Numbered from the stretch's first letter, positions 7,325 through 38,089 are shown. The stretch is 64,000 bases of DNA from Candidatus Bathyarchaeota archaeon (GCA_963717465.1 OY970340.1:288001-352000), one strand, 5' to 3'. The notes: generated by a model from the sequence alone, not told the origin. Numbers and translations: made by a program.

Positions 7325-7430
7325 TGGTGCGGTTACCGGGATTTGAACCCGGGTCGTCAGCTTGGGAAGCTTGCATGGTAACGTTAATGAAGCGTTACTT
7401 TGATGTCCTACCAAACTAGACTACAACCGC
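7325..7430 (-). tRNA. tRNA-Gly(CCC) with a 30-nt intron (7371-7400) in the 5' strand of the anticodon stem; CCA encoded
   Basis: Reverse complement GCGGTTG..GGACATCA[intron]GCTTCCCAAGCTGA..GGTTCAAATCC..TAACCGCACCA; removing the insert restores the TCAGC/GCTGA stem. Confidence 0.93.
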
Positions 7431-30623: not shown

Positions 30624-31241
30624 TTATGGCTGCTTCATGAACTCTATAAATTCTTCAAGGGTTCTTGGCTTCAGGGTGTAGTTAGTTTTTTTCTCTTCGC
30701 CGATAGTCGAATAAGGTCTTTGGCCATAATCGTGCCCTGGATAAACTTCTACAGCATCATCAAGTTTAGATAACTTGTTAAGCAGGCTATCGTACATGCT
30801 TTTTGAGTTGCCACTTGAAAGATCGGTTCGTCCGCATTCGCCTACAAAAAGGGTATCACCCGTTAACAATTTCTTGCCGTCTACAAGCAAGCAAATGCTA
30901 TCAGGAGTATGTCCAGGCGTATAAATGACTTTAATCAGTACGCTACCCACTTGTAAAACGTCACCATCATCAGCGGCTACGTCAAAACTTGCTTGCGAAA
31001 GTTTGTAGGCAACTATTTTTGCACCAAAAAGTGAACGCAACTCCGCGTTGCCGCCGGTGTGATCAAAATGGCCATGCGTGTTAAAGATGTATTTTAACTT
31101 GAATTTTTCAGCTTTTAAAACGCGAGTTAATTCTTTTCCATTGTAGCTTGAATCCACTACTGCAGCTTCAAAGGAAGACTCATCAGCTACGATGTAAGAA
31201 AAGTTATCGCCGCTCGTTTGTCTGATTTGCCTTAAAAACAT
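30624..31241 (-). CDS. Metallo-beta-lactamase-fold hydrolase (glyoxalase II-like)
   Basis: THGHFDH, TPGHTPDS, TGDTLF, YPGHDY. Confidence 0.92.
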   Translation of the reverse strand: MFLRQIRQTSGDNFSYIVADESSFEAAVVDSSYNGKELTRVLKAEKFKLKYIFNTHGHFDHTGGNAELRSLFGAKIVAYKLSQASFDVAADDGDVLQVGSVLIKVIYTPGHTPDSICLLVDGKKLLTGDTLFVGECGRTDLSSGNSKSMYDSLLNKLSKLDDAVEVYPGHDYGQRPYSTIGEEKKTNYTLKPRTLEEFIEFMKQP

Positions 31242-31640
31242 TTTTCAACCACCTACACATCCATTTTATGATTTCTCTATTTTGAAGGTTCTTGTTTGAA
31301 ACTTTTTTCTCATGAAATCCTCAAAGAGAAATTTTGATTTAATAAATGGTTCCTGTTAACTAATAGCCCGTCCCGTAAAAAGCTTTGTTAACTAAACTGT
31401 CAATAACTGCACGATGTACTTCTCCACCAACATTTCATTGGAAATAAAAGACTATAGTGCTCAAAATTAATTAAGGATTTAAGGGGACTGAGCACTAATT
31501 ACTTGATTCACAGGCTTCCATTAAGTTCTTTTACAACATTGCATCCATTGAAAGTATCTTTTACAAAAAAAGTGCAATATTTTTTTAGCAAATATTAAAT
31601 ATAACTTAGGTAGAATTGGATGCCTAGAGGTGACCAATGT

Positions 31641-31949
31641 ATGCCTCAAAGTGAACCAAAAAAGGAACCTAAGTCAACCTTTTCTTTAAAAGAGGAACTA
31701 AATAAAGACGACATTCTCCTGTTAGATATGCTGAGAAGCCCGATTGAAACATTAAAGAATCGTGATATACTTTGCGATCAGGTAATGGTAAACCATCTCA
31801 ACGTTGCTCGCGATGATATTATGAAAAGAGCTAGAGCAGTATTCATAGAAGTGGGTTTGAAACATGACGCAATTCGCGAAGATGGAACCCAAGGATGCCA
31901 AGGTTGCAATGGATGCCAAGGATGCGGGTCAAAACACGTAATGATGTAG
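31641..31949 (+). CDS. Putative RiPP precursor: long leader + Cys-repeat core (QGCQGCNGCQGCGS)
   Basis: SD GAGGTGA before ATG 31641; four 9-bp repeats at 31890-31925; ends 13 bp before the radical SAM gene. Confidence 0.65.
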   Translation: MPQSEPKKEPKSTFSLKEELNKDDILLLDMLRSPIETLKNRDILCDQVMVNHLNVARDDIMKRARAVFIEVGLKHDAIREDGTQGCQGCNGCQGCGSKHVMM

Positions 31950-31962
31950 ACAAAAGAGGAAT

Positions 31963-33069
31963 ACGCAAACGAAAGATACAACACCAATTCTTGCACAATG
32001 GGACATCACCACCGGCTGCAACTTTTCATGTTCATTTTGCCTTAGCAGTAGCGGACAGCGATCAAGAAATGAACTTAACAGTTCACAAGCAATTGAAGTA
32101 ATAAACAGGCTGTATGACGCGGGGATTTTGTTTCTTCGAATACTCGGTGGTGAACCTTTTTTCCGCAAGGATATAATGGATATAATTAATTATGCGACGA
32201 AAAAGGGGATGCTAATTTCTTTTAGCACCAACGGTTCATTGATAACAAAACAAGTTGCCAAGAACCTTAAAGCGGTTGAAAACAACATCAATTACTTTCA
32301 GGTTAGTCTGTACGGTGCAGATTCGCCCTCGTACGAAAAAGTTACGAAAAACCCTCAGGGTTTCAAACTCGTAACGAAAGGGATTCAAAACTTAATTGAA
32401 ATCGGTATGAAACCAAGCATTTTTTGGGTGTTAACTAAAGACAATATAGATCAAGTTGAGAAGGCATACGAACTTGTGTCGAAATTAGGCCTTTCTGAAC
32501 TTAGACTCTCATCTAAGCTTAATTTGGGAAGAGGCAAAACTGATTGTGAATCCGATCCTACAGAATCGATAGAAGCTTGGCGGAAAACCTTGATTATCCT
32601 AAAACAATTAGATAACATGACAAAGTTAGCTGGATCGCCAAGAGTTGTTTTACATGAAAGACCCCTGCTTGGCGAATACCTATATCATTTAACGGGTTTA
32701 CCATACTTTTTTGTAACTTGTAAAGCTGCAACAACGATGATTTATGTCAATTCAGAGGGATATTGCAGTCCATGTCCCTTCTCAACTAATATGCCCAGTA
32801 TGTATGATCCATTAGGACTAAGCAAAGCGCCTACTTGTTTGAATATTCTTGAAAATAGTTTTAGTGAAATTTGGAATTCAGACATTTTTATGACTTACCG
32901 CAAACTCCAAGATCCAAATTTTAATCCGAAGGAAATATTCGTCAAGTGTCCTCATTTTAAAAGTGGGTTCTGCGATCCATGTGTATTTACACCCTGCACA
33001 TGTAGATTTTCAATGGAATTGATCGCAAAAGCCTTCAAAGCAAACCAAACAAACAAAATTATCATTTGA
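31963..33069 (+). CDS. Radical SAM/SPASM-domain enzyme (peptide maturase-like); extends 5' of the called ORF
   Basis: In-frame upstream WDITTGCNFSCSFC (CxxxCxxC), GGEPF, STNG, VSLYG; C-terminal C-x12-GxCxPC and CPHFKSGFCDPCVFTPCTC. Confidence 0.9.
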   Translation, partial: TQTKDTTPILAQWDITTGCNFSCSFCLSSSGQRSRNELNSSQAIEVINRLYDAGILFLRILGGEPFFRKDIMDIINYATKKGMLISFSTNGSLITKQVAKNLKAVENNINYFQVSLYGADSPSYEKVTKNPQGFKLVTKGIQNLIEIGMKPSIFWVLTKDNIDQVEKAYELVSKLGLSELRLSSKLNLGRGKTDCESDPTESIEAWRKTLIILKQLDNMTKLAGSPRVVLHERPLLGEYLYHLTGLPYFFVTCKAATTMIYVNSEGYCSPCPFSTNMPSMYDPLGLSKAPTCLNILENSFSEIWNSDIFMTYRKLQDPNFNPKEIFVKCPHFKSGFCDPCVFTPCTCRFSMELIAKAFKANQTNKIII

Positions 33070-33257: not shown

Positions 33258-36200
33258 ATGCCGTACATTAAAAAAATTGAGTTAAAAGGCTTTAAGTCTT
33301 TTGGACCGCAAACCGTTAAAGTAGTACTGGATAAAGGCTTCACTGCTATAACAGGTCCAAACGGAAGCGGAAAAACCAACATTATGGATGCAGTATTATT
33401 CTCATTAGGTGAATTAAGCACAAGAAGACTTCGCGCTGAAAACGCTTCCAACCTGATTTTTCACGGTTCAGAAAAAGCCGGGCAAGAAAAAGCAAAGATG
33501 GCAAAAGTCGTCATTCAATTTGACAACACTGACGGCACAATGGCGGTCGACACTACGACGGTTACTATTTCTCGGGAAGTTTACAGGAATGGCCAAAGCG
33601 TTTACAGGCTTAACGGCAGAAGAATGTCACGCACTAACATTATAGATACGCTCTCCATGGCTGCAATAAGCAGCGTTAGCCAAAACATTATTCCCCAAGG
33701 CACAATTACACGGTTAACAGACATTAACCCGATTGAGCGAAGAAAAATAATCGAAGACCTAATTGGAATCGCACAGTACGATGCGGAAAAAGCTGAAGCT
33801 GAAGATAAACTTCGAACGGCAGACATTTCAATTCGAACAGCCATGGGCAGAATCGACGAAGTTCAAAAACGCCTTGACGACTTAGAACGAGAACGCAACC
33901 AACTCTTACGTTACAATTTTATTCAAAACGAAATCAAAAAATTTGAGGCAATAAAAATCTCGCATGAAGTTAGACAGCTAAACAAAAAAATTGAAGAAAC
34001 AAATGGTCAAACTGAAAAAATCATCGCTAAAGTTGACCGCTTAAAGGGACTCCGTGACATGAGAAGGTTAAAACGCCGTGAAATTGAAGGCGAATGGAGA
34101 AAACTAAGCGGAGAAACCCTTGAAGAAGGCGGCTCACAGGTTCTTAAGGTACAAATAAAAATTGGCGAATTAAAATCTAAACTCACCGAGTTATCTTCAA
34201 AAATCAGTTCTGGGCAAGCAAGCCTTGAAAGTCTAAAGCGGGTAAAAGAAAACAATCAGGAACAACACGAAACAATTCAAAAAGAAATCAAAGATAACCG
34301 ATTAAAAATTCGCGTTCATCGAGCTGCTTATGAAAAAATTCAAAGCCAGATAAACCTGAAAAAGACTGAGCATGATAGTCTTGCTCAAGAAACAGCTCAG
34401 CTTTGGGAAGGCTTAGGAGATAACAGCCAGAAAATACGCGGATTGGAGATGCAAGTTGAAACTCACATGCGAAGGTTGGCTTACTTGCGCTCTGAATACA
34501 CAAAAGATAAGGCGGCCCTTCGAATCAGTTCAGGTCGACTAAAGAATTTGAATGTCCGCAAAGAAAAGTTCGTTGCAAGTCTAAAGGAAATTGAGACAAG
34601 CCTAAATGAATTAGAAAAAGTTCAAAAAGACCAAAAAGACCAGCTTAAAAACCTGGAAACTATCATTGACCGTAAATTGATCTCAGAAGGAAACTGTTGG
34701 AAAAGAAATTTCAGAAGCAGAAAGAATAGCTGGTTCAGCTAAGGATGCAGTAATAGAATTTGCTACACAACGTGAGCTTGCAGCAACAATAGCAGCTGAA
34801 GAAAAAGCCTTAAGAAGCATTGAAGAAATGGGCGACGCTGGAGCACTTAATGGAATTCACGGAAGACTTCGCAATTTAGTTAAAATTGACAAGAATTACA
34901 AGAAAGCTATAGATGCAGCAGCGATAGGATGGCTTGACGCTTTAGTCGTAAAAGATATTGACTCAGCGTTCATGTGCGCTGAAACGCTTAAAAAAATGAA
35001 GCTGGGACGAATAAAAATCATCCCTTTACAGGGAGCCATTAATCCGAAAAAGAAAGATACCCCTCATAGAGAAGGGGTAGTTGGTGCGCTCTCGCAATTT
35101 TTAAATTACGAGACAACGTTTGAGAGTGCCGTAAATTACGTTTTCGGAGATACCATGGTCGTTTCTAATGATCAGACAGGCTTTGATCTTTCAAATGAGG
35201 GATACCGTGCAGTCACGGTTAACGGTGACTTGTATGAGCCAGGAGCCTTTGAAAGCGGTTATTACCGAGCACCTATTGACTTCTCAACAATTATTCCAAG
35301 TGAAACCGCTATTAAAAGTCTAGATGAAGCAGTTAAAGCGCTTCAACAGCATCTTACTCAACGAGGAACAGACATAACGGGCATCGAAGAAGAAATTGAC
35401 CGTAACAAAATTGAAATGACACGACTGCTGGAATCCATTAACACTTTGGATAGGGAAATAATTAGAATTAAACGAAGCGTTAAACGAACTCAATTCAACA
35501 TTAGACACGTGGATAAGTATGGCGGAAAACTTGAACGGGAAAACGCAGCTTACAAAGGCCGCATGAGCATGTACGTATCTGAGCGAAACGCTATTAAACG
35601 GTTGCTACAGAAAGCTTCACTCAGACATAGCTACCTTAAGATTAAAAACAGATATGGGTCATATTCAAGAACTTGAAGTTCAACGAGAAAAACTTGCAGA
35701 AGAATTAAACACTTTACGCCAAAACTTGGGCTCCGCGCAAACGGAAATTTCAACATGCCAATCACAATTTGACAATGTTCTAAGAACAGGTTATCAAAAC
35801 GTTAAGATTCAAATATCAAAGATTGAACAGCAACAGAAACGTTTGGATAAAGAAGTTGCTGATGCACTTCAAGAACGTGAATCACTTAAGCAGGAAATAA
35901 ATGAACTGGAAAAAAGTCGCGTTGAAATTTCAAAAGCAGTTTTCTCAGCACGCGAAGAATCAAGAAAGTTCACTTCTCAAATAGACACAATCGATACTGA
36001 ATTAAGATTGCTTGATGCAGAGTATGAACAGTCGGAAATGCTTCTAAATCAGCTCCAACTCAGCGTGCAAACTTATAACTTGACGACTGCAACAGCATCA
36101 AAGCCAACTAAAGCAGTATCGGTTACGAGCAGCCTTTAGAAGCGACGGATAAGCAGGTAGAAGAGGCAGAGACTAGCATTCAAATGATGCAGTTTGAACT

Positions 36201-36814
36201 TGAAAGAATAGGAGCAATAAATCAGCTTGCACTTTCTCATTATGCAGATCAAATTTCAAGGTATAGAGAATTATCGATGCGTCTAAACGAGTTAGAAAGG
36301 GAAAAGCAAGCAATCGTTCAATTCATGGATGAAGTTGAAGCGAAAAAACGCAAAGTCTTCATGACTGCATTCGAAAAAATCAATGCCTAGATTAAAAGTT
36401 TATTTCTCAAAACTCACTGGTGGAGGAGATACCGAGCTAAAGCTGGAAAACCCCGATGAACCCTTCGCTGGAGGAATAGACATGTTAGTGCAGTTCCCAA
36501 ATAAACCATCTATCGTTGTTAGTGGAGCAAGCGGTGGCGAGCGTTCAGTTTCAGCAGTCAGCTTCATATTCTCACTAAAAGAGTTAACTCCAGCATCATT
36601 CTACATTCTTGATGAAGTTGACGCCCACCTAGACGCTTTCCACACAACAAAGCTTGCTGATTTACTTTTGGAGGAAGCGGGGAAAACTCAATTTATCGTG
36701 ATTACTTTAAGACCTGAAATGGTCAATAAAGCCCAAAAAGTTTATGGAGTCTATGAGAGAAATGGCGTTTCAAACGTTGTCACTGCTAAATTTCCGGGGC
36801 AGCTGCTTAAATGA
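33258..36814 (+). CDS. smc: Chromosome segregation ATPase SMC (about four frameshifts)
   Basis: GFKSF, Walker A GPNGSGKTN, hinge, SGGERS, Walker B YILDEVDAHLD. Confidence 0.93.
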
Positions 36815-37515: not shown

Positions 37516-38089
37516 AAGAAGAAGACGTTGAACAAGCTATAGATAATGATGAAAAGGTAAGGCAGTGCCTTTCATTAATTGAAGCTGCACTGTACGTTTC
37601 AGGAAGACCATTAGATCTAAATGAGCTCTGCCAAGTTATAGGCAGCCGATCAAAAAAGAAAGCAAAGAAATACGCAGACATTCTTATGCAGAAGTATTCC
37701 GCCCGCAATACTGCACTAGAAATTTTAGCGTTAAAGGACGAACGCTACGTTCTGCAAGTCAAAGCTGATTACACGCCGTTAGTTAAGAAACTTGTTAACA
37801 GACCACTGCTTTCTTCAGGTCCACTAAAAACTTTGTCCTACATCGCGTACAGGCAACCGATTTCGCAGAAACGCGTGATTGATGTACGGGGCAGCATGCT
37901 TATGGACACATAAAGATGCTTAAAGACATGAATTTGATTAATTCTGAGAAAAGCGGTCGCTCCATGGCTTTGAAAACTACAGATTACTTCGCTGATTACT
38001 TCGGGCTATCTCATGATACTGGAGTGATGAAGAAAGAGTTGAAACGTATTTTCGGTGAAGCAATAAAAGAAGAGGAACAACCATCCTAA
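37484..38089 (+). CDS. scpB: ScpB (frameshifted)
   Basis: LIEAALYVSGRPL, LKTLSYIAYRQPI, TTDYFADYFG. Confidence 0.87.

Follow-up and report, generated by a model that had tools for sequence, protein, structure and literature searches.

A cysteine-repeat peptide and its adjacent radical SAM/SPASM enzyme: a candidate thioether-forming two-gene cassette in a Candidatus Bathyarchaeota genome

Introduction

Radical S-adenosylmethionine (SAM) enzymes with a SPASM domain, i.e. a C-terminal domain with seven cysteines and two auxiliary 4Fe-4S clusters, include those that install thioether links in peptides that are made on the ribosome and modified after translation (RiPPs). In sactipeptides the cysteine sulfur is joined to an alpha-carbon, and in ranthipeptides to a beta- or gamma-carbon. 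Here we describe two neighboring genes, together spanning positions 31641 to 33069 of a 64,000-nucleotide stretch of a Candidatus Bathyarchaeota genome (GCA_963717465.1 OY970340.1:288001-352000; this whole stretch is hereafter called the window, with positions counted from its first nucleotide). One encodes a small peptide with a cysteine at every third position of its C-terminal core, and the other a radical SAM/SPASM enzyme. This kind of system is not new, and several described ones offer points of comparison.

The pair StsA/StsB of Streptomyces sparsogenes (NF045574) is one of these. As reported by Precord et al. (PMC10288494), StsB has its highest full-length likeness to the mycofactocin enzyme MftC, yet forms three Cys-to-Gly sactionines. 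The SPASM enzyme described here likewise has its highest full-length likeness to MftC, and the core in the StsB system is also rich in Cys and Gly. However, the StsA core has the form CxCxC...GxGxG with hairpin rings, whereas the core here has a three-residue period and stands behind a leader of ~80 residues. The N-terminal part of StsB, which presumably contains a RiPP recognition element (RRE), is without counterpart in the window enzyme. The compendium of the same paper consists of RRE-associated enzymes only, which places the RRE-less family described here outside it. MftC itself (TIGR03962) is, like the enzyme here, without a fused RRE. In mycofactocin loci an MftB/PqqD-like gene neighbors that of MftC, whereas none was found among the 148 open reading frames (ORFs) flanking the loci studied here (see below), and MftA is a short peptide ending in Val-Tyr, unlike the peptide of ~100 residues with its Cys repeat.

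Type 2 sactipeptides (GggB/streptosactin, QmpB) and ranthipeptides (NxxcB, PapB/freyrasin) resemble the present case in that one SPASM enzyme makes several small unnested thioether rings on short repeats. According to PMC9389541, GggB and QmpB form small unnested sactionine rings, which a title cited there gives as 9-membered for QmpB, and NxxcB accepts several acceptor side chains. The motifs of these systems, i.e. NxxC, CxxxD, GGG and QMP, differ from the x-(G/A)-C units found here, and none of the four enzyme families occurred at a passing score among the best NCBIfam matches of the window enzyme. The four enzymes carry or use RREs and have short precursors.

A methanogen has also been linked to such chemistry: a 2026 paper (PMC13692751) describes CrpC of Methanococcus voltae as a SPASM enzyme that thioether-links the leader-bearing Cys-repeat protein CrpA. 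As here, the host is a methanogen and the partner a Cys-repeat protein and not a short peptide, but CrpC (TIGR04463) has an RRE and is of another family, CrpA has ten 17-residue repeats with C-x-x-Q/D, and the family here is mostly bacterial. Cys-Xaa-Xaa units in strain-variable number are furthermore known from thiazole/oxazole-modified microcins of the heterocycloanthracin type (PMC2674419). These have cyclodehydratase operons elsewhere and predicted thiazoles, whereas a radical SAM/SPASM gene is always adjacent here. No cyclodehydratase or dehydrogenase family of such operons was detected among the 148 flanking ORFs, a local absence that is indecisive since heterocycloanthracin precursors are encoded far from the operon (PMC2674419).

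No curated family covers either of the two genes, and we found no publication that describes the family, in agreement with a first-pass annotation of the window (made from the sequence alone), in which the core was not recognized as belonging to a described family. The supplementary datasets of PMC10288494 and PMC13692751 could list members.

A conserved peptide-enzyme pair

The best explanation for the locus as a whole is a thioether-forming peptide-maturation cassette, which we consider somewhat probable. In its favor is the pairing of the two genes, found from either side. A search of 5.8 billion proteins with the enzyme gave 37 matches at E<=1e-20, in groups at 50-68% and ~40% identity, and an enzyme-first scan using one genome per species resulted in 13 confirmed loci. 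Ten of these, at 42-54% identity, are all found in bacterial metagenome-assembled genomes (MAGs), namely three Nitrospirae, Pirellulales, Planctomycetota, Prosthecochloris, Bacteroidetes, one unclassified, Bradyrhizobium and Anaerolineales. All ten have a homologous peptide of ~100 residues, with a cysteine at every third residue, just upstream on the same strand. In a peptide-first scan of metagenomes, for which an alignment of nine closer peptides was employed, the enzyme gene followed directly downstream in seven out of eight loci, while the eighth contig ends 158 bp past the peptide. These eight loci comprise only four distinct sequences, one of which is identical to the Prosthecochloris peptide. 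The first-pass annotation had proposed a dedicated peptide-enzyme pair, a claim that homologs without Cys-repeat neighbors would contradict, and the pairing held in both scans. A Cys-periodic core behind a homologous leader was present in every related locus examined, which is more than expected by chance.

Further away, the other three loci, from candidate-phyla bacteria (24-26% enzyme identity), have a different short Cys-rich peptide upstream in two cases, while none was flagged in the third. The two peptides in question (L050:1651-1806 and L051:1547-1687) are 46-51 residues long, dense in cysteine and situated ahead of enzymes at 24-25% identity; they likely represent another unnamed precursor family.

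The precursor peptide family

The peptide family is rare. A HMMER pass over 1.84 billion representatives gave only eight peptide matches, including a repetitive 1190-residue protein that looks spurious, and a profile search with the peptide gave 25 proteins. The window peptide itself matched nothing in Pfam and NCBIfam. Two subgroups, A and B, are discernible, with the window peptide in A. Subgroup A has identical (Q/M/N)GC units, three to five per peptide, and subgroup B a fixed five-unit core, e.g. GQACDACNGCRACKAC, with variants; overall, the cores of the relatives consist of 3-5 x-(G/A)-C units. The core cysteines are invariant in both subgroups and keep a strict period of three. The residue preceding them is mostly Gly or Ala, with V, I, S, K or L occurring occasionally in subgroup B, while the first residue of the unit (x) varies between Q, M, N, D, E, R, K and F. 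In Nitrospirae, a pair of peptides with only two differences in the leader has five units in one and three in the other, which fits a processing that takes place per unit.

An AlphaFold2 model of the peptide, based on a 15-row alignment, has helices at residues 16-40 and 47-89 with a predicted local distance difference test score (pLDDT) mostly above 85, followed by a tail (residues 87-102) that is disordered (pLDDT <50). Mean column identity in the leader is 69% among nine subgroup-A members from five phyla. The leader had been loosely likened to NHLP/Nif11-type leaders in the first-pass annotation. When compared with the leader models of the NHLP clan (NF038399, TIGR04509), three out of 15 family members, all in subgroup B, gave matches below the cut-off, the best with 19.6 bits against a cut-off of 40 (E 7e-4). 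The window peptide gave none, and an NHLP-like leader is weakly supported. When the peptide model was compared with PDB folds, no match reached E<=0.001; the peptide profile, run against PDB sequences, had no match below E 0.05, and the peptide itself had no usable match in a protein atlas. One family member of 172 residues (P0048) has a tandem pair of leader domains and a single Cys core.

The radical SAM/SPASM enzyme

The product of the second gene scores above the cut-offs of the Pfam models Radical_SAM (PF04055; 77.4 bits, cut-off 29.5) and SPASM (PF13186; 28.9 bits, cut-off 21.5), and is thereby assigned to the superfamily and the subfamily, respectively. The CxxxCxxC motif (CNFSCSFC, 32017..32040, plus strand) holds the ligands of the SAM-binding 4Fe-4S cluster, and its cysteines C25, C29 and C32 are invariant in 18 out of 18 aligned sequences. 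In the SPASM region (32719..33003, plus strand), seven cysteines are invariant, namely C259, C277, C335, C343, C346, C351 and C353 in the numbering of P0001. The window enzyme keeps all 64 invariant columns of this 18-sequence alignment, including the 10 cysteines. Both the cluster motif and a Cys-rich, SPASM-like tail (CPHFKSGFCDPCVFTPCTC) had been noticed early on, and the open frame and the Pfam matches bear them out. The SPASM cysteines are spaced C-x7-C-x2-C-x4-C-x-C, which departs from what we take to be the canonical form.

Among the NCBIfam models, MftC (TIGR03962) gave the top match, nearly full length (residues 12-322) with 125.9 bits against a cut-off of 265. It was followed by NirJ1 (111.1 bits, cut-off 650) and the sactisynthase StsB (NF045574; 109.6 bits, cut-off 625), the latter over no more than positions 89-278 of its 466-position profile. 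Among solved proteins, the sactisynthase SkfB comes closest, both by sequence (E 1.8e-19) and by Foldseek with an enzyme model of pLDDT 81.8, in which BlsE, SuiB, anSME, PqqE and CteB rank next. Elsewhere in the same genome (G000:C1:1117329-1119036; L004, L005), two adjacent radical SAM paralogs have 31% and 22% identity to the enzyme, and a paralog of ~30% identity, with an open frame of ~490 residues, is found in 28 out of 36 genus-mates.

Layout of the locus

The precursor gene (31641..31949, plus strand) encodes 102 residues and ends with a TAG stop codon. Its ATG lies 7 nt downstream of a Shine-Dalgarno-like sequence, AGAGGTGA (31626..31633, plus strand), as read from the sequence. The start was placed at 31641 and not at an upstream ATG (31620) because this matches the N-terminal length of the homologs. 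The conserved helical part, a leader or domain, comprises residues 1-82 and the core residues 83-102, the C-terminal end of the translated ORF being TQGCQGCNGCQGCGSKHVMM. Four 9-bp units (31890..31925, plus strand) encode QGC QGC NGC QGC, i.e. residues 84-95; Tandem Repeats Finder reports a period of 9 bp with 4.1 copies and 78% matches at 31889-31925. The length of the gene, its ribosome-binding site and the origin of its core in four 9-bp repeats had thus been described correctly before, as had the arrangement of the two genes as a self-contained unit between a metallo-beta-lactamase (MBL) hydrolase and smc, which is supported by the ORFs, the Pfam matches and the flanking genes. The MBL protein (Lactamase_B, Pfam) is encoded at 30624-31241 on the minus strand, and the other flank consists of SMC, ScpA and ScpB.

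The TAG codon was read as a stop because no PylS was found above the cut-off in the host genome. Pyrrolysine read-through was rejected on the same ground, and also because the read-through frame fails to join the enzyme frame. A frameshift fusion of the two genes is unsupported, their homologs being separate genes 12-300 bp apart.

The enzyme gene, counted from an ACG codon, extends over 31969..33069 (plus strand), within a frame that has no stop codon between 31945 and its TGA (33067-33069). A start 13 bp after the peptide gene had been proposed earlier and could not be upheld: the codon at 31963 is ACG, as is that at 31969, and no canonical start codon occurs before the TTG at 32128. The ACG at 31969 was chosen by alignment with the TTG and ATG starts of the relatives. 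In locus L060 the enzyme begins with a TTG 12 bp past the peptide stop, which aligns with this ACG, and in other loci the position is taken by ATG or TTG. The homologs begin 4-6 residues ahead of a conserved P-I-L-A-Q-W stretch and 16-18 before the cluster motif. Nine nt upstream of the ACG there is a Shine-Dalgarno-like AAGAGG (31954..31959, plus strand), whose role would be that of a ribosome-binding site. The public gene call of the enzyme (P0003) is a 286-residue form without CxxxCxxC.

The assembly around the cassette has further irregularities. At least three frameshifts interrupt SMC (33258-36814), which has another break near 36385 and is present as four or more ORFs with separate head, hinge and head, whereas the frame of 1183 residues is intact in five out of five genus-mates. 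ScpB is also split in two (37686-38089). Together with a completeness score of 88% for this single-contig genome, these breaks point either to an assembly rich in indels or to pseudogenes being widespread. With surroundings of this quality, a real change of ATG/TTG to ACG is indistinguishable from a base-call error. Unless the ACG stems from an error in the assembly, the cassette copy in the window may be expressed weakly or not at all.

In the Bradyrhizobium MAG (L046:230-530), a stop codon stands in place of the first cysteine of CxxxCxxC, which may reflect a pseudogene, a mistake in sequencing or recoding of the codon.

Gene neighborhoods

For the flanking genes, 65 ORFs of at least 90 residues (13 loci) and 83 ORFs of 55-89 residues (13 sources, including the window) were scanned, i.e. 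148 in total. No family was common to unrelated loci, and neither a PqqD/RRE protein nor an ABC exporter was found among them. A peptidase (Peptidase_S9) was identified at a single locus. The earlier observation that no RRE, peptidase or exporter is adjacent in the window consequently extends to the other loci, where none is conserved. The cassette is a free-standing two-gene module, with no conserved helper genes.

Sensor kinases or response regulators are situated upstream in the three Nitrospirae loci and in the Anaerolineales locus, and LuxR-type regulators in two loci, which hints at signal-dependent expression. The regulator genes just upstream of the cassette (L044:2566-3351, L045:3213-3416, L040:1622-1996 and L041:3039-3407) encode a LuxR type with autoinducer-binding domain, a GerE-only protein and response regulators. 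An IS200-like transposase lies beside one locus and a reverse transcriptase beside one locus. In the three Nitrospirae loci, furthermore, the peptide gene is separated from the enzyme gene by a GC-rich inverted repeat with perfect 10-bp arms, GGCCGGCGGC and its complement (L040:2476-2566, L041:3898-3988 and L044:3910-3988), which looks like an attenuator giving more peptide than enzyme.

Proposed maturation and alternative explanations

That the peptide is the substrate of the enzyme is highly likely, given the co-occurrence seen in both directions and some weak, not decisive, support from complex prediction. The complex was predicted from the enzyme and the peptide with three 4Fe-4S clusters and SAM. 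It received a score of 0.32 (runs 0.02, 0.32 and 0.36) against 0.00 for the best control, with no interface given, a partner pLDDT of at least 42 and a contact agreement of at least 19%. The mark set for this score is reached by 116 out of 157 solved complexes and by two out of 215 mismatches, and among those scoring 0.60 or under, only 18 out of the 157 solved complexes together with both passing mismatches reached it. The modification itself is probably a thioether: cysteine is invariant in the core, neighboring enzyme clades are also paired with Cys-rich peptides, and the nearest characterized relatives, by score and fold, include sactisynthases.

In the mechanism we propose, the helical domain of ~80 residues, which may be distantly NHLP-like, would probably dock straight onto the enzyme, seeing that there is no RRE. 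The enzyme would carry three 4Fe-4S clusters and would most likely process the tail unit by unit. Each cysteine thiol would be bound by an auxiliary cluster while the 5'-deoxyadenosyl radical takes a hydrogen atom from a nearby residue, after which the C-S thioether would form. The geometry we favor, though only tentatively and with doubt prevailing, would connect Cys(i) with the small residue at i+2 through the alpha-carbon of the latter, giving unnested 9-membered rings in a row. The beta-carbon at i-2 is an alternative acceptor, and the variable x and the small residue before the cysteine fit either of them. The product may be a cleaved peptide or an intact small protein; the lack of protease and exporter, together with the highly conserved helical domain, makes an intracellular modified small protein a live alternative.

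Several observations weigh against a thioether-forming maturation cassette. SPASM enzymes also epimerize residues, form C-C or C-O links and oxidize cysteine, and the window enzyme passed no curated family cut-off in NCBIfam. Its peptide had no match to the NHLP-clan models at E<=10. The leader is conserved far beyond the needs of recognition alone and may have a function of its own, and the lack of a conserved protease or exporter is unusual for a secreted RiPP. Finally, the enzyme frame has no ATG, GTG or TTG ahead of CxxxCxxC, the first of these, at 32128, being situated past the motif.

One alternative retains the enzyme-substrate pair but has a modification other than a thioether, i.e. 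epimerization of core residues, oxidation of Cys (giving formylglycine or a dehydro residue) or links between carbons, with the cysteines perhaps used later for metal binding or disulfides. NHLP-type leaders accompany several maturase classes, enzymes of such chemistry, namely anSME (Cys oxidation) and SuiB (C-C link), as well as PqqE, also rank high in the fold search, and the top NCBIfam score belongs to MftC, an enzyme that does not form thioethers. The likeness to MftC does not, however, predict chemistry, as StsB demonstrates (PMC10288494), and with cysteine as the sole invariant core residue, in a strict period of three, and with distant enzyme relatives likewise beside Cys-rich peptides, we find this alternative unlikely. 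We give still less credence to the small protein being a partner that binds metal or Fe-S via CxxCxxCxxC and serves the enzyme as electron donor, chaperone or regulator, with the true substrate elsewhere. The CxxCxxC-type spacing does resemble that of ferredoxin-like cluster ligands, conservation of the helical domain across phyla is strong and no protease or exporter is present, but three to five units on near-identical leaders would be intolerable for a site of fixed geometry, the tail is modeled as disordered, and no second candidate substrate gene is conserved nearby; such a role is therefore very improbable.

A more serious possibility, short of an even chance, concerns the window copy only, which might be a decaying relic whose enzyme start changed from ATG or TTG to ACG and whose peptide, if made, would be left unmodified. 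This agrees with the lack of a canonical start ahead of the cluster motif, with the alignment of the window ACG to the TTG start in L060 and to ATG starts in other loci, and with the copy being the sole one found in the genus and phylum searched; the stop at the first cluster cysteine in the Bradyrhizobium copy would indicate that decay does occur in the family. On the other hand, the frame of 374 codons is otherwise intact with every invariant residue retained, the Shine-Dalgarno-like site is in place upstream of the ACG, the error-prone assembly, as seen in the split SMC and ScpB, means that the ACG may be a base-call error, and reinitiation after the peptide stop, 20 nt upstream, might make use of a near-cognate codon.

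Host and origin

The host genome contains McrA, which identifies the host as a methanogen. An ammonia-oxidizing archaeon was tried as an alternative host and set aside with an uninformative search, since AmoA was unmatched here and in control genomes alike. Neither the 119 other genomes of the genus nor 400 genomes of the phylum, representing 161 genera, had an enzyme ortholog at E<=1e-60. The first-pass annotation had called the system archaeal, a description that is not supported: the named homologous loci are all in bacterial MAGs, the host is the only holder among the relatives searched, and the family is mainly bacterial.

In five out of five relatives the MBL and SMC genes are far apart, which puts the cassette at a rearranged junction. 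Its GC content of 0.37-0.41 equals that of the flanks and gives no sign of a recent transfer, and a plasmid collection searched with the enzyme had no match at E<=1e-30 (phages were outside this search). The cassette is most simply explained as acquired from bacteria, either long ago or with a matching composition. The window also holds a 103-nt tRNA identified with Rfam (7328-7430, minus strand), which was not called by ARAGORN and is probably an intron-containing archaeal tRNA.

Implications

A bolder version of the proposal, which we deem quite unlikely, is that the product of ~100 residues is never cleaved and remains a folded helical protein, with its tail as a ladder of contiguous nine-membered thioether rings that serves as a redox or metal-handling prosthetic group inside anaerobic cells, encoded by a two-gene mobile module that has spread across bacterial phyla and into a methanogen. 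If true, its logic would be closer to that of mycofactocin or PQQ than to that of an antibiotic.

The cassette adds an unnamed precursor family that combines a long, possibly NHLP-like helical domain, a variable number of three-residue Cys units, an RRE-less enzyme and the lack of helper genes. As a minimal two-gene system it should be easy to reconstitute, and it could show how SPASM enzymes recognize their substrates without an RRE, and whether strings of very small thioether rings form on a repeat. Lastly, the lone archaeal copy would document the transfer of the cassette from bacteria to a methanogen.

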